Part shown: one piece after another, positions 7,231 through 60,926 of the stretch
Numbering within the stretch: the first letter of the stretch is position 1
Layout: each line of letters begins with the position of its first letter
Position numbers and translations under genes: made by a program
The notes under the pieces: model-generated
What the model saw: the letters and a program-made list of their open reading frames with translations, nothing else
Told to the model about the DNA's origin: nothing
Databases searched by the model: none
Sequence record: OL615013
Length of the DNA stretch: 64,000 nt
Source: Shigella phage ChubbyThor
Reading direction: 5' to 3' (one strand)

Positions 7231-8992
7231 AACGCACCTCCGGCTCCACAGTTACAGCACCGATGCGAAGCACCTGGTTTTGTGTGGCCTGAATGTTCTG
7301 GTCAAGACCGTCTGGAGACACGATGATAGTCACTCCCTCGGTGTTGTAGTTGGATACTATGATGCGCTGGAGTTCAACAACGCCATTCACATAATCAACC
7401 GTTCCAACAGCTTGTACCAGATATTCCTTGGTCGTGTCTGCTGTACTCACCTTGTACATATTCAGGACACCACTGACATCGCGCATGTAGTAAGTGAAGT
7501 CGACCTCGGCCGGAAGCGGCTTAAACCCACTGATACGCACAGAACCAGATGCAATCGAGCGCCCATAATCGAACGTGAAGCTGTCTAGTACCCCATAGTC
7601 TGGCTTGAAGTGGCGCTTGTACTTCACGGAAGCGATGTTTGACGCTATCGATCTGTCCATGTCGGTGATGGCCGACTGCAACTGCTCTTTATCGAACAGT
7701 TCGTCGAATCCTTCCAGGTTCCCCAAGCCCCAGTTGACAACACCGTTCTTTACGACTGTCTTCAACTGCTCTTCGGTGTAGGCCGTGGAAGTCGGATCCC
7801 AGAACACGCGGGTGGTGACATCAACATAAGTCAGTTCAGCGTCGACAATCTTGGGTGTGATCGTACCCACATTGTACTTGTCCAAAGTCGCCACGATATC
7901 TGCCTTCTCAGCGTCGGACAGCGTCTCACCAACAGAAGGTACTACAGCAATGTAAACGTATCCAGAGTCGGGCGGAGATAGCGTGTCTCCACCATATGCT
8001 TTGGCGCGGGAGACGTTGGAGAACAGGCGCTCGGTCAACACAGCATAATCGACTTCGGCTACCGCCGCACCCTCAGCCTGATAAGCCAGCGGAGCAAGGC
8101 GCTTGATGTCTTCAATGCTCTCTGGGTCTGTACCGCCAGAAGAACGTTCTGACACCAGTTCAACATCTACAAGGTTGAAGCCCCCGATGGAAGACGCAGA
8201 GGACAAGGCAGTGATGTCATTGCCGTCTGCACCAGAGGTCTCCAGATACTGAAGGTACACGACGTTCCCGTCTTCTACTCGCTTGCAGATATAACCGTCG
8301 CCGAATTCAAACGTGTACATCCCGTCCAACCCCAGCTCAACGAAGTAGAGTTGTGCATACTGGCTCAAATCGAACGGGCTGACATATCGTGAGAAGGTAG
8401 ACCGCACGTCGGAGGTCTCAGATTCCTGCACCTGCACCACCATGTGGTTGATGTCCACGGAAGAAGACGGGATCACATAGGTAGAGATCGCGCTGCCTTC
8501 CACGTCATAGGACTTGTACAGCCAGTTGCCCTGCACGAGTTTGATGTTCTCGAACTTGTAAGAGCCGTCTACAAGAGAGGCGCTCACAGGTTGGTCAACC
8601 GTGAAGTTGTAGGATTTGCCATCCTTCGCTCCAATGAACATCGCCCGGCGGTCCATTACAATCGTATCTGGAGCCGTGCTGGCGTCATATGGAGTGACTG
8701 TGACGTTTGCGTACAGGAACGCCGCCTGGTAGTTGTGAGGGGTGTAAGACAAGAACCCCGCCGCCAGACCAACATTAGAACGCTGTTGAGCAGAGTGAAG
8801 ATGGCTTTCGCCATTCAGCATGTTCTGCATGAACCCGATAGAGTTGGCATCCGAGGCCAAGATACGCACGATTGCACTGAGACCAGAACCTTCAAAGTCA
8901 TAATCCTTGAAAGTTGGATCAGCTTTCATGCGCTTCTTGATAAGATACTCGAAAGCCCTGACATCGAGTGAAGGAACTGTTTGTGTGGCCAT
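7211..8992 (-). CDS. baseplate wedge protein (Baseplate J / T4 gp6-like)
   Basis: ORF track 7211..9007 (598 aa); most plausible start is ATG at 8992 preceded by GGAGA SD; size and position upstream of tail fibre genes; late-promoter-like box upstream. Confidence 0.4.
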   Translation of the reverse strand: MATQTVPSLDVRAFEYLIKKRMKADPTFKDYDFEGSGLSAIVRILASDANSIGFMQNMLNGESHLHSAQQRSNVGLAAGFLSYTPHNYQAAFLYANVTVTPYDASTAPDTIVMDRRAMFIGAKDGKSYNFTVDQPVSASLVDGSYKFENIKLVQGNWLYKSYDVEGSAISTYVIPSSSVDINHMVVQVQESETSDVRSTFSRYVSPFDLSQYAQLYFVELGLDGMYTFEFGDGYICKRVEDGNVVYLQYLETSGADGNDITALSSASSIGGFNLVDVELVSERSSGGTDPESIEDIKRLAPLAYQAEGAAVAEVDYAVLTERLFSNVSRAKAYGGDTLSPPDSGYVYIAVVPSVGETLSDAEKADIVATLDKYNVGTITPKIVDAELTYVDVTTRVFWDPTSTAYTEEQLKTVVKNGVVNWGLGNLEGFDELFDKEQLQSAITDMDRSIASNIASVKYKRHFKPDYGVLDSFTFDYGRSIASGSVRISGFKPLPAEVDFTYYMRDVSGVLNMYKVSTADTTKEYLVQAVGTVDYVNGVVELQRIIVSNYNTEGVTIIVSPDGLDQNIQATQNQVLRIGAVTVEPEVRYVQRSQ

Positions 8993-8995
8993 GTT

Positions 8996-9039
8996 TATCT
9001 CCATCACCTGAACTTGAATATGGTGTTGGAGATATTTAG
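8996..9039 (-). promoter_or_regulatory. late-promoter-like box CTAAATAtCtcc with SD-sequestering inverted repeat upstream of baseplate gene
   Basis: Minus-strand CTAAATA = plus 9033-9039; 7-bp inverted repeat plus 8996-9002 / 9028-9034; 3' arm is the GGAGATA SD of ATG 8992. Confidence 0.4.
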
Positions 9040-9341
9040 TGGGATGGGATTGAAACTTCCTCGCGCGTTATTTTATTATACTATCACTCGCTTCACTGCG
9101 TTCCGCTCGGATAACACCGCCTTGACAGGCAGTCCCATTCCACAGCCATGGAGGCTGCTTTTCGTTGTTCGTTAACACTCACAACTCAAAGGGCACAGCG
9201 ATACGATACAGTCTCTGAGTGGTGTAGAAAAGTAGTTTTTGCCTATTAATAAACCGCGCTCCTATTCGTTGGCCTTTAATTCAATAACACCTTCACCAAT
9301 ATAATAGTGCGGTCAATTAACCATATATTAAGGAACCTCTC

Positions 9342-9914
9342 ATGCACATCAACACTGCTATCACGAAACACATCATTCCTTTGTTAGAGAAATATGAAGG
9401 GAAGAAATCAAAGGATATTTCGTTTGAAGATATATCCGCCGAAGTGAAGCGCTTGACACGTAAAGAAGTCAATTTCCGCCGTGTCCCCCCATCTGCAGTA
9501 GATCGGGCAAAGTCAGATTTGAACACGGCTTCCACTTTCTCCTTTAATATCGATGCCACGGCGACATTGGTATCCGAATTAACGCAGTCGTCACAAGCCC
9601 GTCGCGATCGCTTCCGCCATTTATGTGTGGCCAACGACTATCCTAGCACCCGTGTCGGCATCAAGCTTGAAGCAATCCGCTCCGAGGTGTGCTTCACAGT
9701 GAACTACATCCTGGAGCCTGAAACCAGCAACATTTATTTCGCAGCCATCATCGGCTTCTATGGTACATCCATTAATGGTTGGGCTGAGCGCGTTGAATTA
9801 AAAGAGACTCTGAACAAACACAGCATCCCGTCCACCCATTATATGTCGCTGGCCGCCGCTCGCGAATATGTGTATCTGCTCGAGCGTGATGTGAAGTTAA
9901 AAGTGGTAAAATAA
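9342..9914 (+). CDS. hypothetical protein
   Basis: 190-aa ORF starting with ATG, first plus-strand gene after divergent intergenic region 9008-9341. Confidence 0.5.
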   Translation: MHINTAITKHIIPLLEKYEGKKSKDISFEDISAEVKRLTRKEVNFRRVPPSAVDRAKSDLNTASTFSFNIDATATLVSELTQSSQARRDRFRHLCVANDYPSTRVGIKLEAIRSEVCFTVNYILEPETSNIYFAAIIGFYGTSINGWAERVELKETLNKHSIPSTHYMSLAAAREYVYLLERDVKLKVVK

Positions 9915-9971
9915 CGCTTTATTCAATAAAGAATTGCAGTAAAGTTAGTTGCATGGAAGGGAGGGAACACT

Positions 9972-10118
9972 ATGTTTTACATGATGTTACTCCTCATCCT
10001 CCTGATCGGGATTACCTTTACTCTCCTGGGTCTACCCGATCAGTCCGGTAAACAGTCGCCCACTTCGGCGCATCCGGTTTTGAGTGAAGGTTCGTCCGCA
10101 CTGCTGTGGGCAGTGTAG
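9972..10118 (+). CDS. small hydrophobic peptide (48 aa)
   Basis: ATG at 9972 preceded by GGAGGGAA SD at correct spacing; N-terminal hydrophobic helix MFYMMLLLILLIGITFTLLGL; below ORF-track length cut-off. Confidence 0.3.
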   Translation: MFYMMLLLILLIGITFTLLGLPDQSGKQSPTSAHPVLSEGSSALLWAV

Positions 10119-14997: not shown

Positions 14998-16254
14998 ATG
15001 AACAAATTCGCTGCACAACCCCTCGCTCCATATATTCCGTTTCACACGTTAGGGAAAGGTCCATACAAAACGATTTTTGATGTCCTCTCTCTTCATCGTG
15101 AACATATTCACTGGGAAGACTACCTCTACAAACACACTCCGTGTGAACTCGTCCCCAACCCCGAAACTAACCAGCAGGTCTGGTTCAAGCGTGAAGATTA
15201 CTTCGCGCCGCTATCTTGTTATATGAATGGCAAGCAGGGCATCAACGGCAGCAAACTCCGTCAGGCCATCTGGCTCATGGTTGAGCACCTGAAGGCCGGA
15301 GGCTCCCCTGACATCATCCACGGCACTGTCGTTGGTAGTCCGCAGTCCCCTATGGCGACGGCAGTCTCTCGGCACTTCGGCGGCAAGACAACCACTGTAC
15401 TCGGCGCGACCAAACCCACCACTTGTATGAACCATGATATGGTGGAAATGAGTGCCTGGTTCGGTAGTGAGTTCAACTTCGTCGGCTCCGGCTACAACAG
15501 CACCATCCAACCTCGCTGTAAGAAGCTCATCGAGCAGGTGAATCCAAAGGCGTACTACCTGGAATATGGTATTACCCTGGACCACACAGTGCATTCCCCC
15601 GAGCGCATCGCAGGATTCCATATGCTGGGCGGCGAGCAGGTTGCTAACATCCCTGACCATATCACCGATCTGATCATCCCTGCTGGATCATGCAACTCAT
15701 GCACAAGCATCCTGACCGGGCTGGCGATGCACCCTAAGCCTAATCTGAAGCGTGTTTATCTGATTGGGATTGGACCAAACCGCCTGGACTTCATTGAGAG
15801 CCGCCTGCGCATCATCGGCAAACAGGCCAATCTGCCTCACATTGTCGACTTCACCCGTCGTTATCACGACAACCCAGACTATGTGCACGGCAAGAAGGAG
15901 CTTCAGCATGCCTCTAAGAGCGTTTCGCTGGCTGGCCTCCTAAGTGGTATCAGGCAGAAGGGAGAGCCAGAGGTCGTGCTTCCTCGCTTTGAGGTACACC
16001 ATTGGGATCTTCACACCACCAATTGGGTTCGTTACAATGACCTGATGGATTATCAGTGGGGTGATATCGAACTGCATCCTCGCTATGAAGGCAAGGTCAT
16101 GACCTGGATCCAGCAGAACAAGCCCGAGTTGCTCAATGAGAACACTCTGTTCTGGATCGTGGGAAGTAAACCATACATCGAGCCGATGAAGGCTGCATGC
16201 CCTGAGCTGGCTATCCCAGATGAAGTGAACGTCAACACCTTCACTCCTTCCTGA
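14998..16254 (+). CDS. PLP-dependent enzyme, fold type II (ACC deaminase / D-cysteine desulfhydrase / Trp-synthase-beta-like)
   Basis: 418-aa ORF; segment FKREDY...NGSKLRQAIWLM resembles the KREDx...GGNKxRKLE PLP-lysine region of the ACC-deaminase family. Confidence 0.5.
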   Translation: MNKFAAQPLAPYIPFHTLGKGPYKTIFDVLSLHREHIHWEDYLYKHTPCELVPNPETNQQVWFKREDYFAPLSCYMNGKQGINGSKLRQAIWLMVEHLKAGGSPDIIHGTVVGSPQSPMATAVSRHFGGKTTTVLGATKPTTCMNHDMVEMSAWFGSEFNFVGSGYNSTIQPRCKKLIEQVNPKAYYLEYGITLDHTVHSPERIAGFHMLGGEQVANIPDHITDLIIPAGSCNSCTSILTGLAMHPKPNLKRVYLIGIGPNRLDFIESRLRIIGKQANLPHIVDFTRRYHDNPDYVHGKKELQHASKSVSLAGLLSGIRQKGEPEVVLPRFEVHHWDLHTTNWVRYNDLMDYQWGDIELHPRYEGKVMTWIQQNKPELLNENTLFWIVGSKPYIEPMKAACPELAIPDEVNVNTFTPS

Positions 16255-17423: not shown

Positions 17424-17519
17424 TGATGTATTTCCTTCTCTTCAGATTGTTGTTTGTTCGTACTACAATTAGAAGTATACGCCAGTTATTGAAGAAGTAA
17501 ACTTTATTCAATAAATATT

Positions 17520-17732
17520 TTAATAAATTTTGAACTCTGCTCCCTTGTACGTTGCCGACCCTCGTTCTATGAGACCGTCTGGGACAATCACCTTTGTCGG
17601 CCAACCACCATCTGGAGCCTTAACAGTCAGGCGTGTCTTGTGATCACCCAGCTGTGTCTGTTCATAGATCCTTCCGCGCACTATCGTCGCCCCGCCTTGG
17701 GTGACGAGCAATCTCTTGTTTACCACTTTCAT
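17520..17732 (-). CDS. hypothetical small protein
   Basis: 70-aa ORF between terminator hairpin and downstream minus-strand gene. Confidence 0.35.
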   Translation of the reverse strand: MKVVNKRLLVTQGGATIVRGRIYEQTQLGDHKTRLTVKAPDGGWPTKVIVPDGLIERGSATYKGAEFKIY

Positions 17733-17739
17733 TCCCTAA

Positions 17740-17770
17740 ACACCAAAAGAAAGGGGAGTTTCCTCCCCTT
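17740..17770 (-). terminator. intrinsic terminator (minus strand)
   Basis: Hairpin AAGGGGAG-TTTC-CTCCCCTT; on minus strand followed by TCTTTTGG. Confidence 0.45.
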
Positions 17771-17774
17771 GAAC

Positions 17775-18365
17775 TTATTTCTTCAGATCAGGCCACGCAC
17801 CAGAGGTCGCAGTAGACCCAGCTGGGGGAGCAGACTCAAGATCGGGAGCACCCGACTGAGTAACAACAGTGGGATCTTTTTGTACGACCCGGACCCCAAA
17901 TTGCTTGAGAGCATCCACAGCCTGGGCTTTTCGCCCGTTGCTTTTGTAGTGGTTGTAGCCTTTGATACCGAATGATGCACTAATTGCTGTCAATAATGAA
18001 TAGGTATACCATTCAGGTGCGGTATCGAGCGCCTGGAGGCCACCGATTACTGCTTTGATGAAATCCCCTTTATGATACTCACCAGGGAACAAAATCAGTT
18101 CCACAACCGGAGCAGTCATGACGAGGATAGCGGGTACGGCCAACACGATAGTCCAGAATTCGTCTTTCCAAGATCCGCCGACTTCGGTGATCTTAGACAG
18201 CTCCCAATCTGAGGAGGACTTGATAGCCTCCAGCTTGACGTCGTGTTTGGCCTGAACAACTTCCCGCTTATATTGAATCAAATCAGTCCCGAGGTTCCAG
18301 AGTTGCTTGAGCGCCCCTGGGATCATACCAACGAGGGGGATTGCCATAATAAACTCCTTGGTCAA
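17775..18365 (-). CDS. membrane protein
   Basis: 196-aa ORF with hydrophobic segments (IMAIPLVGMIPGAL, FWTIVLAVPAILVMTAPVV). Confidence 0.45.
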   Translation of the reverse strand: MTKEFIMAIPLVGMIPGALKQLWNLGTDLIQYKREVVQAKHDVKLEAIKSSSDWELSKITEVGGSWKDEFWTIVLAVPAILVMTAPVVELILFPGEYHKGDFIKAVIGGLQALDTAPEWYTYSLLTAISASFGIKGYNHYKSNGRKAQAVDALKQFGVRVVQKDPTVVTQSGAPDLESAPPAGSTATSGAWPDLKK

Positions 18366-18426
18366 TGAATGGCTCTATGGTTAAATATGCCCACGTGCTA
18401 ACGGCACGGATAACCTGGAGAATTAC

Positions 18427-21426
18427 ATGACCGTTTTCTATACGAACGTTGCCCGCCGGGGCAATGACCTGTTGATTCGAATCGCAGATGACATGGGTAA
18501 TCGCCGTCTGTTGAAAAAGAAATTCGAACCCACTCTCTATTTACCCACGGCTGATTATTCAAATGTTGAAAAGGTCGGCTTGCTCAACGAACCTTTGATC
18601 TCCAAGAAGTTCCCTGACATGCGCACTGCTGACAACTACCTTGAAGAGTACAAGGAAGTCCAGGGTGCAGCCATTTACGGGCAGACCGATTATGCATACC
18701 AGTTCATCGCCCACAGCTTTCCTGGGAAGATCGAGCCGGATTACTCCAATATCCATATCGCCAACCTCGATATCGAAGTGTTCACCGCCGGGTGGAAAGA
18801 TGGGGAGATGACCAAGGGTCCATTCCCTCATCCGACTATTGAGCAGCAGACGTTCAAAGGTAGCGAGGCACGCATCCGCCGCTTCCATCAGCAGGTACTG
18901 GCCAACCATGACTTCATCCGTGAGCACTTTCCCAGTTCCTTTATCAGCAATAATGTAACTGATCAGTTCCCTATCATTGATAGCAATGGCAAGATCACCC
19001 AGGACATGAATGCAGCGTTCCCTATCACGCTCATCCAGCTTCAGGACATGGCGACCAATAAGTTCATGGTGTGGGGTATGCCGTGCGCGAAGGATCGTGC
19101 GAAGTTCAGATACGATCCAGAAGACGCGGAGATCGGTGGACTTGAGGTGGAGTACAAGGAGTTTGTCACCGAGCAGGATCTGCTGCGATCTTTCCTTGAC
19201 TTCTGGTCACAGCGTCAGTTTGATGGCTGGACAGGCTGGAACATTGAAACGTTCGATAGCCCGTATCTTGTTGAGCGCATGAACCAGGTTCTGGGCGAAG
19301 CCGAAACATCGCGCCTCAGTCCTTGGGGTATCATCAAGAAGCGTATCATTCGCGATAAGAAGGGCGATATCACGACGTATCAGTTCGTGGGCTGTCCTAT
19401 GCTCGATTATATGCAGATCTACAAGAAGCACACGTACACCACCCGTGAGCGGTACTCTCTTGATTGGATTGCTTACTGTGAGTTGGGTGAGAAGAAGATG
19501 GACTACAGTGAGAGCAAGTCGCTCTTTGATCTGTACTTCAATGACTATGCCAAGCACACCCGATATGGTATCAAGGACGTCAAGCTGGTATGGCGTCTCG
19601 AACAGAAGCTGCGTCTGCTCCAGCTGATGTTCGTCCTTGCGTACCGCACCAAGTCGAACTATGAAGACGGCCTGGGTACAGTGGCTCCGTGGCTGGCCAT
19701 GTGCTACTATCGTCTGTATGAGAAGGGCATCGTGCCTAAGATCCAGCGTGTATACGATGGTCCGACCGATTTTGAGGGCGCATACGTCATGGAGGTGACA
19801 CCAGGAATCTACTTCTGGGTCTTCTCTGAGGACTTGAACTCCCTCTACCCTCACATCATCCAGCAATACAACCTCGGTCCTGAGACTATCGTTGGCGACA
19901 AACACCAGCGCCGTGAGATCATTGAGGCTATGTGTGAAGAGCTGGCTGCTCAGATGAATAACATGGCAACGCCGATGCACAAACGTCGGTTGATGAAAGC
20001 CCTTCACGACAAACTGTTGCGCGCGATTGACGAACGCCTGCAGGTTGTTGATGAACTGGTTGCTCTGGGTGAGTTCCACTTTGAAACCCTGCGCCGCTAC
20101 AACGTGTCCTTCACGCCGAACGTTCAGTTCTTCAGCAACGAGAAGATGTCGTTCCTGTCTGAAATCATGCGCGGTATCTACAGCGACCGTAAAGTAGAGA
20201 AGGCCAAGGGGCTGAAGTACGAGCAGTGGGCTGGTTGGTGTAAAGAGATGGCGAAGGGTGACTTCCATCTTGAGTCCGCCATGAAGTCCCGCTACTACGA
20301 TCCAGAGTGGTATGAAGAGCACAAGAACATCGATCTTGATGCACTGACCGAAGTGATGAAGAAGTGGGAAGATCTGGGCGTTGCCCAAGATACCCTACAG
20401 CAAGGTCTGAAGATCTTGATGAACGCAGGTTATGGCGCGATCTCAAACGTCTGGTTCAAAGAGTACTTCAACCTCAACATCGCCGAAGCCATCACAACGT
20501 CCGGTCAGCTGATCAACAAGTGGAACAAGCGCTACACCGATGACTATCTGAACAAGCTGTGCGGCACGACAGGCCAGGACTTCGTCATCGCGGGTGATAC
20601 CGACTCCAACTACATCTGCATTGAGCGTCTTGTCAAGCAGTTGTGGCCTGATGTTACTGACCATCATGCTATGGTTGATAATATCGACCAATGGATCAAA
20701 GACAACTACCAGCCGAAGACCAATGAGTGGGCACAGCTTCTGTGTAACACCATGAACGGATTTGAACAGCGCATGGTGTGGGAGCGTGAAGTAATTGCAT
20801 CAGCTGCCGTCTGGCGAGCCAAGAAGATGTATGCCATGGCTGTGTACGACAGTGAGGGTATCAAGTACGAGAAGCCGAAGATCAAGTTCAAAGGTCTGGA
20901 AGCCCGTAAGTCCACCACGCCGGAATGGTGTCGTGAGCGCCTTGTCAAGTGCTATGAGAAGATCCTACTCGGCACCGAAGAGGAAGTACAGACGCTCATC
21001 TCCCAGTACAAAGAGGAGTACATGAAACTCTCTGTAGACGATATCGCCAAGGCGTCAGGCGTGTCCGACATAGAGAAGTGTGTGGCCGCCGACGGCTCGT
21101 TCATCTCTGGTGCTCACTATGCTGCCAAGGCTTGTGTGGGTTACAACCGCATGGTAGAGAAGAACGAAGACCTCGGCCTGCCGATGATTGAGTCGGGTGA
21201 TAAGGTCAACATGGTACTGCTGAAGAATGGCAACCCGTTTGGCCAGAATTACTTCGCATATCCTGAGTTCTTCCCCGAGGAACTGGGTATGGGTAAATGG
21301 GTGGATTACCATACAGCCTTTGAGAAGTCCTTCATCGACCCGATTCAGTCCATCCTTGACGTGGTCGGCTGGTCACACAAGCGTCGTGTGAACCTTCTTG
21401 CCATGATGCAAAAGAAGAAAGGTTGA
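18427..21426 (+). CDS. DNA polymerase, family B (T4 gp43-like) with 3'-5' exonuclease domain
   Basis: 999-aa ORF; Exo I motif ANLDIEVF, polymerase motif A DLNSLYPHII, motif C IAGDTDSNYI. Confidence 0.95.
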   Translation: MTVFYTNVARRGNDLLIRIADDMGNRRLLKKKFEPTLYLPTADYSNVEKVGLLNEPLISKKFPDMRTADNYLEEYKEVQGAAIYGQTDYAYQFIAHSFPGKIEPDYSNIHIANLDIEVFTAGWKDGEMTKGPFPHPTIEQQTFKGSEARIRRFHQQVLANHDFIREHFPSSFISNNVTDQFPIIDSNGKITQDMNAAFPITLIQLQDMATNKFMVWGMPCAKDRAKFRYDPEDAEIGGLEVEYKEFVTEQDLLRSFLDFWSQRQFDGWTGWNIETFDSPYLVERMNQVLGEAETSRLSPWGIIKKRIIRDKKGDITTYQFVGCPMLDYMQIYKKHTYTTRERYSLDWIAYCELGEKKMDYSESKSLFDLYFNDYAKHTRYGIKDVKLVWRLEQKLRLLQLMFVLAYRTKSNYEDGLGTVAPWLAMCYYRLYEKGIVPKIQRVYDGPTDFEGAYVMEVTPGIYFWVFSEDLNSLYPHIIQQYNLGPETIVGDKHQRREIIEAMCEELAAQMNNMATPMHKRRLMKALHDKLLRAIDERLQVVDELVALGEFHFETLRRYNVSFTPNVQFFSNEKMSFLSEIMRGIYSDRKVEKAKGLKYEQWAGWCKEMAKGDFHLESAMKSRYYDPEWYEEHKNIDLDALTEVMKKWEDLGVAQDTLQQGLKILMNAGYGAISNVWFKEYFNLNIAEAITTSGQLINKWNKRYTDDYLNKLCGTTGQDFVIAGDTDSNYICIERLVKQLWPDVTDHHAMVDNIDQWIKDNYQPKTNEWAQLLCNTMNGFEQRMVWEREVIASAAVWRAKKMYAMAVYDSEGIKYEKPKIKFKGLEARKSTTPEWCRERLVKCYEKILLGTEEEVQTLISQYKEEYMKLSVDDIAKASGVSDIEKCVAADGSFISGAHYAAKACVGYNRMVEKNEDLGLPMIESGDKVNMVLLKNGNPFGQNYFAYPEFFPEELGMGKWVDYHTAFEKSFIDPIQSILDVVGWSHKRRVNLLAMMQKKKG

Positions 21427-21479
21427 TTCAATAAACCAAAGGGGGATATAATTCCCCCTGTTAACCCTTTGACAAACAG

Positions 21480-21830
21480 GTGATTGAAATGAAACTCAAT
21501 AAGATTCTTCTGGTGTGTGCTCTGGCTTTCTCTACCACCGCATGCTCTACCCTTCTGGACGTTGCGTCTACTGTAGACCTTGACGCGCCGACGTTCACCA
21601 ATGAACAAGCCGTGGCCAAGATGGAAGATACCATTAAGGCGCATGCGGCGTTGGATAACGCCACCCCAGGTCCGCTCCAAACTGTCTGCAACTATGACGA
21701 TTCCATCCAGGAAGACGAAACCTACCACTGCACCACCTACGTGAAGCAGGCTTCCGTCGTTCTGTATGCGGATTGTACCGAAGAACAGTGCGTTGCTACG
21801 GGCTACGACAAAGTGGAGAAAGATCAATGA
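21480..21830 (+). CDS. putative lipoprotein
   Basis: 116 aa; signal peptide followed by lipobox-like LAFSTTAC. Confidence 0.45.
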   Translation: MIEMKLNKILLVCALAFSTTACSTLLDVASTVDLDAPTFTNEQAVAKMEDTIKAHAALDNATPGPLQTVCNYDDSIQEDETYHCTTYVKQASVVLYADCTEEQCVATGYDKVEKDQ

Positions 21831-22606
21831 ACAACCTGGTCTGTCTCTATGATATGAAATCAAAGGTCGGTGGTCTGTATCGCGTCCTCGTGGATGTTGA
21901 CCTGACGCTGGTCGACAGCCTCTCCCCTTGGGTGCAGTGGTTCAATGAAGAGAACATCGCTGCCGCTGCTATCGCTACGGGGGAACATAAGTCATATCAG
22001 TTCCAGCCGATCACCAAAGAGTGCTATATGGCTCATGCTGGCGACCTGGCTATTCTGATGCGAGAACGTGCACATCCGGCGTGGTTGATACGCCGCGTGT
22101 ACCTCGCTGGGCAATGGATGTATGCTCCTACAGGGCGTGATCCTATGGATTGGTGGCGTCGCCCCGATCTGTATGCCAAGATGAACCCGCTCCCGGGTGC
22201 TTACGAGTTCCTGGTGAATCTGAAGAAGATTCTGCTCGAAGACTTTGACAATGTTGAATTCATCGCAGTGTCCAAGTGTGAGCCGGAACACGAGCGCAGC
22301 AAGCGCCAGTTTGTCTACGACAAGTTCCCTGGCATCTTCAACGGATTTGTCAGTACTGACGAAAAGCATCTGCTGGCAGGCGATGTCCTGATTGATGACA
22401 ATCCGAAGTATGTTGAGCCGTGCGGCCTGAACAACATCTTCGTCATCTTTGTTCCTCAGGGCAATTATGAAAAACTGGATCTTTCGAATTCGGAAGATAT
22501 GCTTTATATTAAACCAGTAGAAGGCCAGAACCACTTCGACTTCCTGAATCACAATATTGTTGAAGTGGTGAACCGCTTGATTGGTCATTATCAATACGTC
22601 CGATAG
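21827..22606 (+). CDS. HAD-superfamily phosphatase (putative 5'-deoxynucleotidase)
   Basis: ORF track 21773..22606; start ATG 21827 overlaps upstream stop (ATGA); N-terminal DVDLTLVD matches HAD motif I DxDxT. Confidence 0.5.
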   Translation: MNNLVCLYDMKSKVGGLYRVLVDVDLTLVDSLSPWVQWFNEENIAAAAIATGEHKSYQFQPITKECYMAHAGDLAILMRERAHPAWLIRRVYLAGQWMYAPTGRDPMDWWRRPDLYAKMNPLPGAYEFLVNLKKILLEDFDNVEFIAVSKCEPEHERSKRQFVYDKFPGIFNGFVSTDEKHLLAGDVLIDDNPKYVEPCGLNNIFVIFVPQGNYEKLDLSNSEDMLYIKPVEGQNHFDFLNHNIVEVVNRLIGHYQYVR

Positions 22607-22615
22607 GAGGACATC

Positions 22616-22921
22616 GTGCAAGAACAATCCAAGTTTGGGGAAACCCCAGACAAGCGTTCCGGTGATAGCGATATGGATGGCGTGATTATCCATGTCAACA
22701 ACTTTATTCGCCAGCAGGAGACTCCGACTCCTATCGGCGCAGCCAAGGCTCTTCATGACGTACTGGTAGAGATCGGTCAGCGCTCTGAAGCGGATGAAAT
22801 CTTCTATAACTTCGACGACCAGTATAAAGTGAAGTTTGAAGAGAATGGCCGTCCACAGGTTGCTGTATTCTGGGCACCATGGATGGGCGGCGTGAGCTGG
22901 CGTATTGAGGATGCTGTGTAA
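22616..22921 (+). CDS. hypothetical protein
   Basis: 101-aa ORF in co-directional array. Confidence 0.45.
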   Translation: MQEQSKFGETPDKRSGDSDMDGVIIHVNNFIRQQETPTPIGAAKALHDVLVEIGQRSEADEIFYNFDDQYKVKFEENGRPQVAVFWAPWMGGVSWRIEDAV

Positions 22922-23607
22922 TGCTGTCGCTCTACCTGATCACGAATCTCGTCAATCATAAATTCTATATCGGTGTCACTTCAGAACCGGATAGGCGGTT
23001 GGCTGAGCATAAGTGTGGTCAGGGGAGCATTGCATTACAACGAGCGTTCAAGAAATATGGTGAAGATCAGTTCAAGTTTGAAGTTCTGTTCCGAGGGAAA
23101 GATTCGGTTATCCTTCAGATAGAGTCTGAACTGGTCTGCCAGGAGATCCTCGATAGCGGGTGGTGTTACAACATGGTCGCCGGGGGTGGGAAGCCTCCAT
23201 TGGCCACGCCAGAGTCATCCGCAAAGAGCGCCGCAACCCGCAAACGTTTGATCGCTGAGGGTAAGATTAAACCTCCACCAAGACTCACCCCTGAAGCACA
23301 AGCCAGAAAGGGTAAGATCATAAGCAAATTGATGTCAGAAGGGAAGATCCCCAAACCACCAAGACCTTCCTCTGAATCTCAAACGCGTGGAGGGGAAACT
23401 AGGAAGAGGCTGCATGCTCTTGGCCTGATAGACATTGGTCCTGGCCGTGATGAAACGATTTACAAATGGCAGCACAAAGATGGTCGCATCGTTGAGTTAA
23501 GGAGGTGTGACATGGAACTTCAATATGGCCTCCCTTCCGGTAATATAACGAATCTCTTGAAAGGTAGGGCTAAAACATGTCTCGGTTGGAGAATATTAAA
23601 TGGCTAA
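22921..23607 (+). CDS. GIY-YIG homing endonuclease (free-standing)
   Basis: N-terminal LYLITNLVNHKFYIGVT...RRLAEHK matches GIY-YIG catalytic module; basic C-terminal DNA-binding region. Confidence 0.7.
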   Translation: MLSLYLITNLVNHKFYIGVTSEPDRRLAEHKCGQGSIALQRAFKKYGEDQFKFEVLFRGKDSVILQIESELVCQEILDSGWCYNMVAGGGKPPLATPESSAKSAATRKRLIAEGKIKPPPRLTPEAQARKGKIISKLMSEGKIPKPPRPSSESQTRGGETRKRLHALGLIDIGPGRDETIYKWQHKDGRIVELRRCDMELQYGLPSGNITNLLKGRAKTCLGWRILNG

Positions 23608-24517
23608 AATAATTGTAGTGAAAGGCACCTCGGCCACGGGCAAGGGTACGAGAGTGGTCCAGTTCATCGAATGGCTCCGTACGAAGCTGGAGCCTACCGA
23701 ACTCACCTACACCATTGGTGGCAAGACGCGCCCGTTTGGCCTGAAATTCGAAGAGCTGAAGTTGATCTTCGTCGGCCAGTACACTGTGTCCAACAAATCC
23801 GGCCTGGCTTCCTGGACTTCCATGGACGCCATTCATGCTGCCACAGGCTCGGGTGATATCGCTCGTGACCTGGTCAAAGGCTGGCTGGCTCAGGGTTACA
23901 CCCTGGTGTGTGAGGGCGAACCCCTCATGCTGTCGGACAAATGGCGTCCTGAGTGGATGTTCAAGAACTATCCGATTGAATCATTGGCGCTGCTGTACTT
24001 TGCGTACCCCGACCGCTATCAGTACGATGCCCGCATCCGTGGTCGCTCTGGTAAAGAAGCAGGGGACTCCGGCTGGTCTCGCAACGAATCTTACTCCAAG
24101 GAGTTTGAGAAGTCGAAGGCCGAAATGCTGGCGCTGGGCTTCACCCCTGTGGTTGACAACTACAGCGGGCAGGATATCCTGTATAAAGCGCCAGAGGCCA
24201 ACACCCAGGAGTTCACGACCAAACAGCAGTCCGAGTTGGCGGTGCTCCCATACGACGCCCCGCTGTGGGTTGTGGGTAATGCGATTTGTCATCAGATACG
24301 GTCCGAACTGCGTGAAGTGAACATGGACACCAAAGACTTCTATGGTTTCTGTGAGACCGACCCAATGACCCGTGAGGTCGGCGGTGATGATCCTTTGGCG
24401 CACAGAGTGCCTGAGAAGCCGCAGAAGGCATCCAAAACTAAAACCAAGGCGAGCGCCCAGCCAGAAGCACCGAAGGCAGCGTCGCGCTCCCTCCTTGACC
24501 TGATGAAGAAGGGGTGA
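23600..24517 (+). CDS. P-loop kinase / NTPase (candidate DNA 5-hydroxymethylpyrimidine kinase)
   Basis: 305 aa; Walker A-like VVKGTSATGKGT at N-terminus; functional assignment inferred. Confidence 0.5.
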   Translation: MAKIIVVKGTSATGKGTRVVQFIEWLRTKLEPTELTYTIGGKTRPFGLKFEELKLIFVGQYTVSNKSGLASWTSMDAIHAATGSGDIARDLVKGWLAQGYTLVCEGEPLMLSDKWRPEWMFKNYPIESLALLYFAYPDRYQYDARIRGRSGKEAGDSGWSRNESYSKEFEKSKAEMLALGFTPVVDNYSGQDILYKAPEANTQEFTTKQQSELAVLPYDAPLWVVGNAICHQIRSELREVNMDTKDFYGFCETDPMTREVGGDDPLAHRVPEKPQKASKTKTKASAQPEAPKAASRSLLDLMKKG

Positions 24518-24717
24518 TCATGAAACGGTTGTCTAATTATCTGTTATTCGTCGGTCTGGTTATGGCAGCCGTTTCAATGTGCGCTGCCCTAGCCTATCAT
24601 TTCACTCCTCTGGACTTAACAACCTCAGAGAAGTTGAACGTGACTGTGATGTACTGTATTGGCGCGGTGATGTCTATCGGCGCTGCTGGTTACAAAATAT
24701 TCAAGGAACCAAAATGA
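24514..24717 (+). CDS. small membrane protein
   Basis: 67 aa with two hydrophobic helices. Confidence 0.4.
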   Translation: MIMKRLSNYLLFVGLVMAAVSMCAALAYHFTPLDLTTSEKLNVTVMYCIGAVMSIGAAGYKIFKEPK

Positions 24718-25070
24718 AAATTCAAATCCCTCGCGATGCTGTGGCTGTCGCAATTGACTACACCGGAAACGCCAAGCACATTACTGCTGTGCGCCTGATT
24801 CCTGAAAAGAACTGCGTGATCCCTCAGTTCCAGCTGAATGCCAACCCGTCGTCTAAAGACTTCGGTCAGTGGCTGCAAGCGGCTCCGTTCCGCACCCAGA
24901 CGAATGCCCAGATGTTCATCTCGGGTAAGACTCACACTGCAGCCCGTCTGTGGTTCGTGACCGCTGACCGTCGCTTTGTCGATATGTGGGAGCGCCCGAT
25001 GGGGTTCGTGAAACCAGAAGACATTCAGCTGGCTCCTGAAGAGGAAGCGAAAGATGACGCATCTATCTAA
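24714..25070 (+). CDS. hypothetical protein
   Basis: ORF track 24579..25070; ATG at 24714 overlaps upstream stop. Confidence 0.45.
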   Translation: MKIQIPRDAVAVAIDYTGNAKHITAVRLIPEKNCVIPQFQLNANPSSKDFGQWLQAAPFRTQTNAQMFISGKTHTAARLWFVTADRRFVDMWERPMGFVKPEDIQLAPEEEAKDDASI

Positions 25071-26280
25071 AATGCCGACGGGATATACACCCCCGGCTGA
25101 ATGGAAGTATCCGATTGACCTGGCTGTTGATTATCGCAAGCCTGAGAATCGCATGTACCTGCTCAAGGCTTGGGTGGAGGCGCTGTCCTACACCGAAGAG
25201 CACAATCAGCAGATGCGTCTGATGGACTATGCTATCGAAGTCACTGAAGGTATCAGCCTCGAACAGAAAGTCGAGCGCAAGATCTGGATGGCATTCCTTT
25301 GGGGTTGTTGCTATAACGCCATCGGTCCATGGACGATCTACAGTGAGTTCCCTGTGCCACCACAGTCCAAAGAAGAGATGCAGCGCTTCTCTGATTGGTA
25401 TAACCTGAACTTTGATCGCATGCGCTTCGATACCGACTGTCGCTACCGCAAGTCGAAGATGATTCCATGTGTTCAGTCCTATATTGACTGGCTGGCTGGC
25501 CGTACTCAATATGACGCTTTCCGTGAGATGCTGGTGTGCATCGATAAAGCAGAACAATTCACTCAGCTGTGGGACACGGCGATGTCCTGGAAATACTTCG
25601 GTCGCCTCAGTGCCTGGAACTTCCTGGAAGCCCTGAACATGGTCTTCGGGGACGAATACACCATTGACGTCCCTGGCTTCATGCTGCGTGACCGTGATGG
25701 TAGCGAGTCCAACCGCAACGGCGCGGCGTTCTTGTCCAACCGTGACGACTGGGTGACCAAGCACGGGAAGAAAAAGATCAACGGTTGTCCTATCACGGAT
25801 GAAGAGTGTGACATCCTTGAGGCCGACCTTGAGCAGGCGTTCCAGGATTGCGTGGCTGAGTTCGGGCATCTGACGTTCATCAATCGCCTGAACTTTGAAA
25901 CCTCCGGCGCATGCTGGCTGAAGAAGTTCTTCCGTGAGAAGAATACCCGTTACATTGGGTGGGATGCCGAGCGTACCTGGGATGAGATCGACTACATGGA
26001 ACGCATCTGGCCGGAGTACTCCTGTGCAGCGCTCTGGGAAGCCCGTTCGCTCTGGCTACCAGATACCCTGTTATGCGAAAAGGCACCTCCAGGGCACGTT
26101 CCAGGCGTTCAGAAGTGGAAGATGCCTGTGTTCTTTGAGACTGGCGTTCCTCTGCACATCTGGCATCTGCAAAAGGGTACGCGCTGGGAGCCTGACCAGG
26201 TGTATCAAGAATTGGGTAAACCGAAGATTGATAAACCGAAGTCCAACAGCGTCAACCTCATGGCACTCTTGAAACGCTGA
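25054..26280 (+). CDS. hypothetical protein (408 aa), candidate base-modifying transferase partner of the kinase
   Basis: Large Trp/Cys-rich ORF immediately downstream of kinase; function inferred from context only. Confidence 0.45.
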   Translation: MTHLSKMPTGYTPPAEWKYPIDLAVDYRKPENRMYLLKAWVEALSYTEEHNQQMRLMDYAIEVTEGISLEQKVERKIWMAFLWGCCYNAIGPWTIYSEFPVPPQSKEEMQRFSDWYNLNFDRMRFDTDCRYRKSKMIPCVQSYIDWLAGRTQYDAFREMLVCIDKAEQFTQLWDTAMSWKYFGRLSAWNFLEALNMVFGDEYTIDVPGFMLRDRDGSESNRNGAAFLSNRDDWVTKHGKKKINGCPITDEECDILEADLEQAFQDCVAEFGHLTFINRLNFETSGACWLKKFFREKNTRYIGWDAERTWDEIDYMERIWPEYSCAALWEARSLWLPDTLLCEKAPPGHVPGVQKWKMPVFFETGVPLHIWHLQKGTRWEPDQVYQELGKPKIDKPKSNSVNLMALLKR

Positions 26281-26312
26281 TATAAATATCCTCGCCTATA
26301 AAGTGAGGATAT
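26281..26312 (+). promoter_or_regulatory. T4-type late-promoter box TATAAATA whose tail forms an SD-sequestering hairpin
   Basis: TATAAATA at 26281-26288; 8-bp stem ATATCCTC (26286-26293) / GAGGATAT (26305-26312); ATG of small ORF at 26317. Confidence 0.4.
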
Positions 26313-26316
26313 TATC

Positions 26317-26484
26317 ATGTTACAAGATCTGTTGGTCTACGCACTTCCGGGTGTGGTTGTTGGATTCATCGCAGGTGCTCTGGTCTTCCGCAAACACGCG
26401 CAAGACGGTGAAGTGATTGTTCAGAAGGGTAAAGACATCCTGGAACAAATCGAAGCCAAACTGGATGAGCTGAAGAAAAAGTAA
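26317..26484 (+). CDS. small protein (55 aa) with N-terminal hydrophobic helix
   Basis: ATG 26317 with GAGGA SD; below ORF-track cut-off. Confidence 0.3.
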   Translation: MLQDLLVYALPGVVVGFIAGALVFRKHAQDGEVIVQKGKDILEQIEAKLDELKKK

Positions 26485-26512
26485 TCTGATTGCGATTGCG
26501 TTCTTCAATAAA

Positions 26513-26550
26513 GGGGAATGGGTTAATATTAGCCCGTTCCCCTTTCTTTT
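26513..26550 (+). terminator. intrinsic terminator
   Basis: 10-bp stem GGGGAATGGG/CCCGTTCCCC followed by TTTCTTTT; preceded by TTCTTCAATAAA motif. Confidence 0.55.
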
Positions 26551-26565
26551 GCAAGGAAATACATC

Positions 26566-26778
26566 ATGGCAATGCAACGAATTGAAGATATGTCCCTACT
26601 GGATATGGAAGCGACTTTTGGTGATTACTTTGAGTCCACTCCGAAACAAAAAGACCCTCTGGTTGGCCGTCTGGTGGTTTCTGAAGCGTTCGCACAGAAA
26701 GTTCGCGAAGGTCTTCCGCCTGAATATGGGTGCTTCCGTAATGGCGCTTCCGTTATCGTCATGGGTGAATCTAAATGA
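26566..26778 (+). CDS. hypothetical protein
   Basis: 70-aa ORF. Confidence 0.4.
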   Translation: MAMQRIEDMSLLDMEATFGDYFESTPKQKDPLVGRLVVSEAFAQKVREGLPPEYGCFRNGASVIVMGESK

Positions 26779-27161
26779 CACAGTCCGAATACAAACAGTA
26801 CCTGTACGATCTGTTCATGAAAGAAACGGATGGTACACTCCATCCTAAGAAAGCCACTATCGTCGTGCTGCATTCACAAGGTGCCCTGTCATTCTCCTAT
26901 CTTTTCAAAGAATTGGATCTGATGGGCATTGAATATAAAAAGCACATTACGCCAGAACGCACTCTGAAGCGCGCAACCGCTCACTGCGTCCATTCAGTGG
27001 CAACTGTTATGTTCCGCCATCACATCACATTTGATGAAGCGCTGGACCCACAGTATCACGAAGAACGCTGGGGACTGTTGTTGCATAACGGTGCCAATCC
27101 TGAGCACAAAGATCAACTCCTTGGGATGACCAAGGCACAACTCGTGGATGGTGTGTTATGA
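26775..27161 (+). CDS. hypothetical protein
   Basis: 128-aa ORF, start overlaps upstream stop. Confidence 0.45.
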   Translation: MTQSEYKQYLYDLFMKETDGTLHPKKATIVVLHSQGALSFSYLFKELDLMGIEYKKHITPERTLKRATAHCVHSVATVMFRHHITFDEALDPQYHEERWGLLLHNGANPEHKDQLLGMTKAQLVDGVL

Positions 27162-28273
27162 TCTATCTCCTGTTTGGTGTGCCATTGATACTGGCCATCC
27201 TGTTTGTGGTCTACCACCGCAAGACCCATGAGCCGAAAGAGACTCTGATTGCGACGGCGATTGTGGTGGTGCTGTCCTGTCTGATTCAGGTCGGGGCTTA
27301 TGCTGCGTTCTCCCTCGGCAGTTCAGGGGACGTTGAGATCCTGAACGGATACGTCACTGGCAAAGAGCGCAATAAGGTGAGCTGCGAGCACTCGTATCAG
27401 TGCAACTGCTACTACACCACATCATGCTCCGGCTCCGGTAGCAGCAAGTCCTGTACCCGTACCCGTCATTGTAGTACCTGCTATGAGCATTCGTATGACG
27501 TGGACTGGGATGTGCTGACGACTGTCGGTAATCTGACAATTGACCGCATTGACCGCCGTGGTCTTGGCCAGCCGCCGCGCTGGGCGCAGGTTCAGATTGG
27601 TGAGCCAGCCGCCCGTGAGCACTCCTACATGAACTATGTGCTGGGCAACAAGGACTCTCTGTTCTCCCGCTCAGACCAGCAGTTTGCTGAGCGCTTCAAA
27701 GACAAGATTCCCAAGTACCCTGAGGTCTATGACTACTATCGTGTCACTCGTGTGCTGAACGTGTCCGGTCTGGCTTTGCCGACCACATACTGGAACGACT
27801 ACCTGAATGATGTTCTGAAGAAGCTGGGCGCGGCCAAGCAGGTGAACATCGTCTGGGTTGTGACATCCGGGCAGCCAGTTGAATATTTCCAGGGCTTGGT
27901 CTATGCATGGGATGGCGGTAAAAAGAACGACGTTATCGTCGTGACCGACATCAGCAAAGACCTGAAGATCAATTGGGGTAAGAGCACTTCGTTCGCTGAT
28001 GGTATGCACAACCGTGAACTTCACTCCCGCAACGGTATGGACCTGACTGGGCATGATATGGGTATCGGCGTCATGACAGACGTTGTCGCCAACATCACCA
28101 AAGGCTACAACCGCGTTGAGATGAAGGAAATGGAGTACCTGAAGTGGCGGGAACTCAAGACCTGGGAAGTTGTGGTTGTTGTTCTGCTGGGCTGCTTGCC
28201 GTTCACCGCAATTTTCATATTGCAGCGAATGGAGTACAATGGTGGCCGTCGTCGTTATCCGTTTAATTTTTAA
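27158..28273 (+). CDS. Cys-rich membrane protein
   Basis: 371 aa; N- and C-terminal hydrophobic helices; cluster CEHSYQCNCYYTTSCSGSGSSKSCTRTRHCSTC. Confidence 0.5.
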   Translation: MIYLLFGVPLILAILFVVYHRKTHEPKETLIATAIVVVLSCLIQVGAYAAFSLGSSGDVEILNGYVTGKERNKVSCEHSYQCNCYYTTSCSGSGSSKSCTRTRHCSTCYEHSYDVDWDVLTTVGNLTIDRIDRRGLGQPPRWAQVQIGEPAAREHSYMNYVLGNKDSLFSRSDQQFAERFKDKIPKYPEVYDYYRVTRVLNVSGLALPTTYWNDYLNDVLKKLGAAKQVNIVWVVTSGQPVEYFQGLVYAWDGGKKNDVIVVTDISKDLKINWGKSTSFADGMHNRELHSRNGMDLTGHDMGIGVMTDVVANITKGYNRVEMKEMEYLKWRELKTWEVVVVVLLGCLPFTAIFILQRMEYNGGRRRYPFNF

Positions 28274-60710: not shown

Positions 60711-60926
60711 TCACTTCCTCATCAGTGAGAGCAGGTTGACCACAGCCGGACGCGCATCAGGGGCGTAGAAGACGTCCTGAGAGTGCCTCTTACAGCACGG
60801 GCAATCCTTCGTGGCGATTACACAGGGAGCCTTGTCCACGGCAAATCCGGCGGCTTCGGCTTCCTTCACGGTGGTGAATGGCAGGTAAGCACTTGTGCCC
60901 TGCCCTCCGCATGAACATTCCATCAA
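60711..60926 (-). CDS. small Cys-rich protein
   Basis: 71 aa; CSCGG...CPCCKRH. Confidence 0.35.
   Translation of the reverse strand: MMECSCGGQGTSAYLPFTTVKEAEAAGFAVDKAPCVIATKDCPCCKRHSQDVFYAPDARPAVVNLLSLMRK

Follow-up and report, generated by a model that had tools for sequence, protein, structure and literature searches.

The 64,000-nt stretch of Shigella phage ChubbyThor DNA analysed here (sequence record OL615013; hereafter the window) carries a run of tightly packed co-directional genes on the + strand, spanning 18427-26280 in the open reading frame (ORF) listing, at the end of which lie the genes for a 305-aa P-loop protein and a 408-aa protein, predicted to be a kinase and a transferase that modify bases in DNA (Table 1). 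Over a 24-kb stretch the DNA is 95-96% identical to that of phages P46FS4, MK-13 and SKML-39, and the region of the module shares 94% identity with Shigella phage Ag3 and 88-96% with many Aglimvirinae; because of this high DNA identity, we assign the window to an Agtrevirus-like member of the Ackermannviridae, the family of the ViI-like phages. Gene order is identical in ViI (polymerase, orf237, orf239, orf240, orf243, orf244, orf245, orf247).

An earlier note on this DNA had described four co-directional ORFs with overlapping stops and starts downstream of a GIY-YIG endonuclease gene, and the ORF listing bears this out on the + strand. The GIY-YIG stop and the kinase start overlap by 8 nt, the two small genes that follow the kinase (orthologues of ViI orf00244 and orf00245) join in an ATGA overlap, and the second of them overlaps the 408-aa frame by 17 nt, placing the latter gene 540 nt downstream of the kinase gene. 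The first small ORF can start either at GTG 24514 (67 aa; a 4-nt overlap with the kinase gene) or at ATG 24520 (65 aa; a 2-nt gap), the latter being more likely because it is preceded by an AAGGGG ribosome-binding site. In a scan of positions 17500-27500, promoter-like sites were not commoner than in shuffled sequence, and no convincing + strand terminator was seen within the run from the polymerase gene to the 408-aa gene.

In the 305-aa protein the earlier note had seen an N-terminal Walker A motif and no other recognisable domain. The motif, GTSATGKGT, does occupy residues 9-17, but the protein as a whole (residues 1-304, aligned to profile positions 1-298 of 298) matches the Pfam family HMUD2, '5-hmdU DNA kinase 2' (PF18747; E = 9.1e-159, 527.8 bits against a cutoff of 25), which is its sole Pfam match at E <= 0.1. 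It is 84% identical to gp243 of ViI (YP_004327565) and syntenic with it, the resemblance extending over the full length and including the P-loop, the place of the gene after those for the polymerase, the NT5C-like protein and the DUF7254 protein, and a C-terminal linker and terminal motif. With a protein of Shigella phage ChubbyThor the identity is 100%. The kinase and gp243 differ in the Walker A sequence (GTSGTGKGT in gp243), in the tail (SRSLLDLMKKG here, SVSLLGLMRKA in gp243) and in the upstream GIY-YIG insertion, which is present here and not at ViI gp243. An alignment of 23 diverse homologues, down to 40% identity, revealed a conserved kinase core and a variable linker, with G9, S11, G14, K15, G16, R18, E105-G-E107, R116, R139, D143, R145 and R149, among other residues, invariant. 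On the strength of these sequence comparisons, we regard the protein as a predicted 5-hydroxymethyl-deoxyuridine (5-hmdU) DNA kinase of the HMUD2 clade and the orthologue of gp243. Its P-loop, GxxxxGKGT, resembles that of adenylate-kinase-type nucleoside monophosphate (NMP) kinases, which counts in favour of an ordinary nucleotide kinase, an alternative weighed below.

The 408-aa protein, rich in Trp (20 residues; 4.9%) and Cys (11; 2.7%) as had been described, matched the Pfam family ADDT, 'amino acid:DNA transferase' (PF18724; E = 1.4e-60, 205.4 bits against a cutoff of 26.2). It is 88% identical to ViI gp247 (YP_004327568) and syntenic with it, without any indel before residue 389; the ETSGACW and DTDCRYR motifs are identical and the tails share the pattern SVNLM[AS]LLKR, and the difference lies only in the linker before the tail, which includes a 3-residue deletion. 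In a 60-sequence alignment of the amino acid:DNA transferase (AADT) family, E282, T283, W288, K290 and K291 were invariant, as was DTDCRYR (residues 126-132), and C287 was at least 90% conserved. Profile alignment with hhalign placed E243, T244 and C247 of PUGT, the gp46 protein of Pseudomonas phage PaMx11, opposite E282, T283 and C287 with a one-residue insertion, such that the spacing is E-T-x-x-C in PUGT and E-T-x-x-x-C here; in the PaMx11 enzyme, E243 and T244 bind the metal and the cysteine C247 serves as nucleophile (PMC11472151). An AlphaFold2 model built on the 60 homologues (predicted local distance difference test, pLDDT, 93.1; predicted template-modelling score, pTM, 0.90) matches the helical, helix-hairpin-helix (HhH) glycosylase-like fold of PUGT, the solved 5-phosphomethyl-dU (5-PmdU) glycinyltransferase (PDB 8z2m), even though the two proteins are only ~11% identical and PUGT, a 292-aa protein that uses glycine as donor through an N-linkage, lacks the C-terminal linker and tail of the 408-aa protein. 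The low-confidence part of the model comprises residues ~381-400, where the linker (residues ~379-398) has a pLDDT of 51-68; beyond it, residues 402-407 form a short terminal helix. The PDB, searched by sequence with the kinase, the AADT or the 60-sequence AADT profile, gave no match. Taken together, sequence and model indicate that the 408-aa protein is a predicted AADT (a group formerly called aGPT-Pplase clade 2) and the orthologue of gp247, with serine as its inferred donor.

The two genes are linked in all of the related loci drawn from IMG/VR (27/27, L013-L039), and also in the more distant loci L042, L074 and L075; a second scan of viral contigs, with the AADT profile, returned mostly the same contigs. 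In the locus L042, on a 141-kb phage contig, two HMUD2 kinase genes stand in tandem (8531-9988 of the contig) before the ADDT and HMUDK_hel genes, with ThyA-like and dUTPase genes after HMUDK_hel, in a cluster much more compact than that of the Ackermannviridae.

A third enzyme of the same chemistry is encoded further upstream in the window. This predicted pyridoxal phosphate (PLP)-dependent decarboxylase is 92% identical to ViI gp226 (YP_004327553) and retains, as Lys86, the proposed aldimine Lys92 of the ViI protein, with a match to Pfam PALP (1.1e-07, 32 bits) that falls below the 35-bit gathering cutoff. In ViI, lysates of gp67, gp160, gp226, gp243 and gp247 together reconstitute 5-(2-aminoethoxy)methyl-dU (5-NeOmdU; Lee et al., PMC5889632). 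Purified gp243 and gp67 phosphorylate 5-hmdU in DNA, purified gp247 transfers L-serine through its hydroxyl onto 5-PmdU DNA and is inactivated by Cys-to-Ala and Glu-to-Ala mutations, and gp226 decarboxylates the gp247 product (PMC8989533). The modification genes are conserved across the Ackermannviridae according to a review (PMC11721090), and 5-NeOmdU has been detected by mass spectrometry in ViI, CBA120 and phiHS2; because of this family-wide conservation and these detections, the same base is probably made by the phage studied here.

We therefore put at roughly 0.93 the probability that the kinase and AADT genes encode the second and third enzymes of the known Ackermannviridae 5-NeOmdU pathway. 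For this phage the case is built from family membership, orthology, fold, catalytic residues and synteny, while the chemistry comes from the ViI orthologues. In such a pathway, the polymerase would incorporate 5-hmdU, derived from dUMP through a ThyA-like hydroxymethylase encoded outside the window, and the kinase would then move the gamma-phosphate of ATP onto the 5-hydroxymethyl group of 5-hydroxymethyluracil (hmU) in duplex DNA, giving 5-PmdU. The 408-aa enzyme would flip the modified base into its HhH-glycosylase-like pocket, where Cys287 would add to C6, with Glu282 acting as general acid or metal ligand; departure of the phosphate would leave an exocyclic methylene, to which the side-chain hydroxyl of free L-serine would add, forming O-serinyl-thymidine (O-SerT). 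Removal of CO2 from O-SerT by the PLP enzyme would yield 5-NeOmdU, a base that blocks many restriction endonucleases.

The DNA-base kinase and transferase pair proposed in the earlier note is thus upheld by the HMUD2 and ADDT profiles, both above their cutoffs, by the 84% and 88% identities to gp243 and gp247, by synteny and by the match of the AADT model to the glycinyltransferase fold; the kinase does not fall into a dNMP or nucleoside kinase family, nor does the 408-aa protein adopt an unrelated fold. The kinase-then-pyrophosphorylase/transferase logic that the note invoked needs amending: its kinase and transferase steps stand, but the intermediate is a monophosphate (5-PmdU) and not a pyrophosphate, and the 408-aa enzyme is no pyrophosphorylase. 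The same two-step logic, in which hmU is phosphorylated in DNA and the phosphate is then displaced by an amine or hydroxyl donor, is followed by gp54/gp51 of Pseudomonas phage M6 and gp37/gp109 of Delftia phage phiW-14 (PMC8989533), which differ in kinase clade, in donor (glycine and putrescine) and in tailoring (a radical-SAM isomerase in M6).

Several points weigh against assigning the pair to the 5-NeOmdU pathway. The dUMP hydroxymethylase, the gp67-like first kinase and the gp160-like protein all lie outside the window, judging from the ViI map, and the complete pathway is therefore not visible in it; the phage would keep two kinases and two glycosylase-fold proteins; and the sole ground for serine specificity is the 88% identity to gp247. 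It is very improbable that the pair is active but installs a side chain other than that of ViI, from another amino acid or an amine nucleophile: AADT donors do vary, in that M6 and PaMx11 use glycine, phiW-14 putrescine and ViI serine (PMC8989533), but the 88% identity to gp247, free of indels before residue 389, the matching decarboxylase and the presence of 5-NeOmdU in ViI, CBA120 and phiHS2 argue for the ViI product. Even less credible is the reading of the 305-aa protein as a common guanylate, thymidylate or dNMP kinase that supplies the dNTP pool, as the names 'guanylate kinase' (PHROG 4409 and RefSeq orthologues) and 'thymidylate kinase' (one UniRef entry) would have it, given that the only Pfam match is full-length HMUD2, that the ViI orthologue phosphorylates 5-hmdU in DNA (PMC8989533) and that each of the loci examined has the kinase gene linked to an AADT gene. 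The name 'guanylate kinase' is a misannotation that has spread through RefSeq and PHROGs. Public records of ViI and its relatives contain further misannotations: they name gp67 (kinase 1) a 'terminase small subunit' and list the AADT and the PLP enzyme as 'hypothetical'.

Table 1. Genes and sequence features of the module and related elements, in window coordinates.
Feature	Position	Strand	Remarks
Three tRNA genes (Asn-GTT, Tyr-GTA, Ser-GCT)	12396-13130		Gene-poor stretch
PLP-dependent decarboxylase (predicted), ViI gp226 orthologue	14998-16254	+	92% identity to YP_004327553
Family B DNA polymerase (T4-like)	18427-21426	+	999 aa, intact; Pfam DNA_pol_B and DNA_pol_B_exo1
Polymerase C-terminal tail	21382-21423	+	RRVNLLAMMQKKKG
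DUF7292 protein	21480-21830	+	
NT5C-type 5'(3')-deoxyribonucleotidase-like protein	21827-22606	+	Pfam NT5C 2.3e-08
DUF7254 protein	22616-22921	+	
GIY-YIG (SegD-like) homing endonuclease, free-standing	22921-23607	+	228 aa; Pfam GIY-YIG 5.7e-08; PHROG 19446 1.8e-104
5-hmdU DNA kinase HMUD2 (predicted), ViI gp243 orthologue	23600-24517	+	305 aa; Pfam PF18747
Kinase Walker A	23624-23650	+	GTSATGKGT
Kinase Lys/Pro/Ala-rich linker	~24389-24481	+	
Kinase terminal motif	24482-24514	+	SRSLLDLMKKG
Small protein, two hydrophobic segments, ViI orf00244 orthologue	24520-24717 (or from GTG 24514)	+	PHROG 4514
118-aa protein, ViI orf00245 orthologue	24714-25070	+	
AADT (predicted), ViI gp247 orthologue	25054-26280	+	408 aa; Pfam ADDT PF18724
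AADT catalytic stretch	25897-25914	+	E282-T283-S-G-A-C287
AADT terminal motif	26248-26277	+	SVNLMALLKR
71-aa Cys-rich protein, ViI orf00053 orthologue	60711-60926	-	
Terminal motif of the 71-aa protein	60714-60743	-	VVNLLSLMRK

Since the kinase-transferase pair has been characterised experimentally in the close relative ViI, the pair itself is already known, and the practical value of its recognition here lies in the annotation of a characterised anti-restriction DNA-modification pathway, with the prediction that the DNA of this phage resists many restriction enzymes. The only new feature noticed, and the part that merits follow-up, is a terminal motif common to the polymerase and the modification enzymes. 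The tail of the polymerase (RRVNLLAMMQKKKG), which is kept in relatives, carries the same motif as the tails of the kinase (SRSLLDLMKKG) and the AADT (SVNLMALLKR), where the terminal peptide is preceded by a Lys/Pro/Ala-rich linker; the PLP enzyme lacks such a tail. Among 84 kinase and 62 AADT homologues, the low-complexity linker varies in length (by 16-20 residues) and sequence, and the terminal hydrophobic motif persists.

A regular expression for the motif was derived after the fact from the polymerase, kinase and AADT peptides, all of which it matches. It found six matches in the window, four of them at C-termini, the fourth belonging to a 71-aa Cys-rich protein. Run on the complete genome of ViI (1101 six-frame ORFs, 108,795 residues), it again found six matches, and all of these (6/6) were at protein termini: at the C-terminus in the polymerase, gp243, gp247 and orf53, and at the N-terminus in gp67 (MSYSLKGLLKR) and orf49. 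Only the three further ViI matches are independent of the derivation, and the probability of all three being terminal is p ~0.005. A near-match missed by the expression ends ViI gp160 (GSVNLLDRLKKPE). The 71-aa protein has the same linker followed by its VVNLLSLMRK tail and contains a CxC...CPCC arrangement, possibly zinc-binding, and it matched no Pfam family.

Beyond the enteric lineage, we compared tails in the loci L036, L038, L042, L043 and L073-L076 (Table 2). The motif differs from lineage to lineage, and changes together across the enzymes of one genome.

Table 2. Terminal peptides of the polymerase and of modification enzymes in different lineages.
Lineage or locus	Polymerase	Kinase	AADT	HMUDK_hel	Other
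Enteric Ackermannviridae	VNLL[AS]MM	SLL[DG]LM	SVNLM[AS]LL	SVNLLDRL (ViI gp160)	
L036	KKKVNVLKFFK	RKTKKLW	GKTKRLW	GTKKLW	
L038	KKKVNVFSFIKKKAE	NKSRKLW	NSKRLW	TTKKLW	SSLRRLFKK (gp55-like sigma factor)
L042	TSALW	NDLW, SSLW (two kinases)	NALW	NSLW	
L073 (T4-like)	VSLEDFFS	ILEFFDIFH	LSLFDF	not present	
L074	not in locus	NVFDIF	NVLDFFG	SILDLL	
L043 (35-kb siphovirus-like contig)	not in locus	no tail	no tail	not present	

A short hydrophobic C-terminal motif common to the polymerase and to unrelated DNA-acting proteins is also found in phage T4, where the polymerase gp43 ends in SLDFLF(G) and gp55 ends in SLDFLY(EAND). This T4 motif reportedly binds the sliding clamp (Berdis et al. 1996; Shamoo and Steitz 1999). 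In the phages studied here the motif is common to the polymerase, the kinase, the AADT and ViI gp160, and its consensus, [SV][NS]L[LM]x[LM][LM]K[KR], differs from the SLDFLF/SLDFLY of T4. Because it co-varies with the polymerase tail across distant lineages, it suggests a shared clamp-docking peptide. We lean, by a little, towards the view that the tails are sliding-clamp interaction peptides that would recruit modification enzymes to newly replicated DNA, among them the HMUD2 kinase, the AADT and the gp160-type HMUDK_hel protein, with ViI kinase 1 (gp67) docking through its N-terminus. A weaker claim, that all the tails dock to one partner, whichever it may be, is perhaps quite probable. Full-text literature searches found no paper linking sliding clamps with hypermodification enzymes. 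The ViI genome has genes for a gp45-like clamp, a loader of the gp44/gp62 type and a gp33-like coactivator; its orf00165, annotated as gp45, scores 21.2 bits against Pfam gp45-slide_C, below the 25-bit cutoff, and adjoins the gp44- and gp62-type loader genes. The clamp gene of the phage studied here lies outside the window.

A motif that does not bind the clamp is a serious though less favoured possibility: it could form a short helix, amphipathic or basic, that contacts membrane or DNA, dock to another hub, such as single-stranded DNA-binding protein (SSB), RNA polymerase or a scaffold of the modification complex, or serve as a degradation signal. Three observations speak for such a role and against clamp docking. 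The ViI orf49 match falls at the N-terminus of a PspA/IM30-like protein, a place in which one would expect an amphipathic helix; the polymerase tails of L036 and L038 (KKVNV[LF].F[FI]K) resemble the enzyme tails of these loci (K[KR]LW) only loosely; and the sole precedent proposed, the binding of T4 alpha-glucosyltransferase to gp45, is disputed by a 2025 preprint that could not reproduce it, and for this reason was dropped and is not relied on here. On the other side, the very end of a T4-like polymerase carries the motif, at the place where T4 gp43 and gp55 have SLDFL[FY], and the tails of the enzymes vary in concert with that of the polymerase in the enteric lineage, L042 ([SAD]LW) and L073 (SLEDFF, SLFDF). 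Moreover, the gp55-like sigma factor of L038 ends in SLRRLFKK, resembling the enzyme tails of that phage, and the homologues in L043, the one small phage contig examined, are without a tail; the stretch of it that was read shows no T4-type replication genes.

If the tails do bind the clamp, post-replicative thymidine hypermodification would have a physical link to the sliding clamps that remain on the DNA, explaining how hmU-seeking enzymes gather behind the replication fork. Deleting the tail, or competing with it by a peptide, would then also offer a simple handle on the partial nature of thymidine modification (~40% in ViI, ~16% in phiHS2). Separately, the gp62-like clamp-loader subunits (ViI orf00163, and those of L074 and L075) start with SLFDYL, GLFDWL or ALFDWL, N-termini that resemble T4-type clamp-binding motifs; T4 gp62 starts MSLFKD.

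Between the kinase and AADT genes lie those for the two small proteins named in the earlier note, a membrane protein, which has two hydrophobic segments, and a protein of 118 aa. The small membrane protein is 34% identical to ViI orf00244, belongs to a PHROG without assigned function, and is absent between the kinase and AADT genes in 12/27 loci (L025-L028, L030, L031, L034-L039). The 118-aa protein, 59% identical to ViI orf245, belongs to a family found only in Ackermannviridae and is absent in 7/27 loci, in which the kinase and AADT genes are adjacent or overlapping; it matched no Pfam domain, and its confident structure model had no structural neighbour. Neither small protein was needed for the reconstitution of 5-NeOmdU in vitro with ViI components, and both are missing from distant relatives. 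We treat them as lineage-specific inserts and not as universal parts of the module.

The GIY-YIG gene is absent from the site upstream of the kinase gene in ViI, SKML-39 and MK-13, the DNA matches to the latter two beginning at query position 700. It is a mobile homing-endonuclease passenger and lies outside the pathway. Among genomes >90% identical the gene can be present or absent. Three of the related loci (L032, L033 and L035) have a longer kinase ORF, a single frame of 529-532 aa whose N-terminal extension opens with a GIY-YIG-like sequence (MxxYHYxYRITH).

A match to NT5C occurs between the polymerase and kinase genes in all 27 related loci (27/27), and near the module also in L073-L075; for the 229-aa gene in the equivalent position in L042, no Pfam match was recorded. 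The NT5C-like protein may shape the dTMP/hmdUMP pool. In L001 (phage RPN242; 345-4527), L018 and L032, the polymerase gene is split into two coding sequences by a ~0.9-kb ORF that ends ...SEDLNSLKLAA and is likely to be an intron, an intein or a homing-endonuclease insertion. Upstream of the PLP decarboxylase gene, the window carries three tRNA genes in a gene-poor stretch (Table 1).

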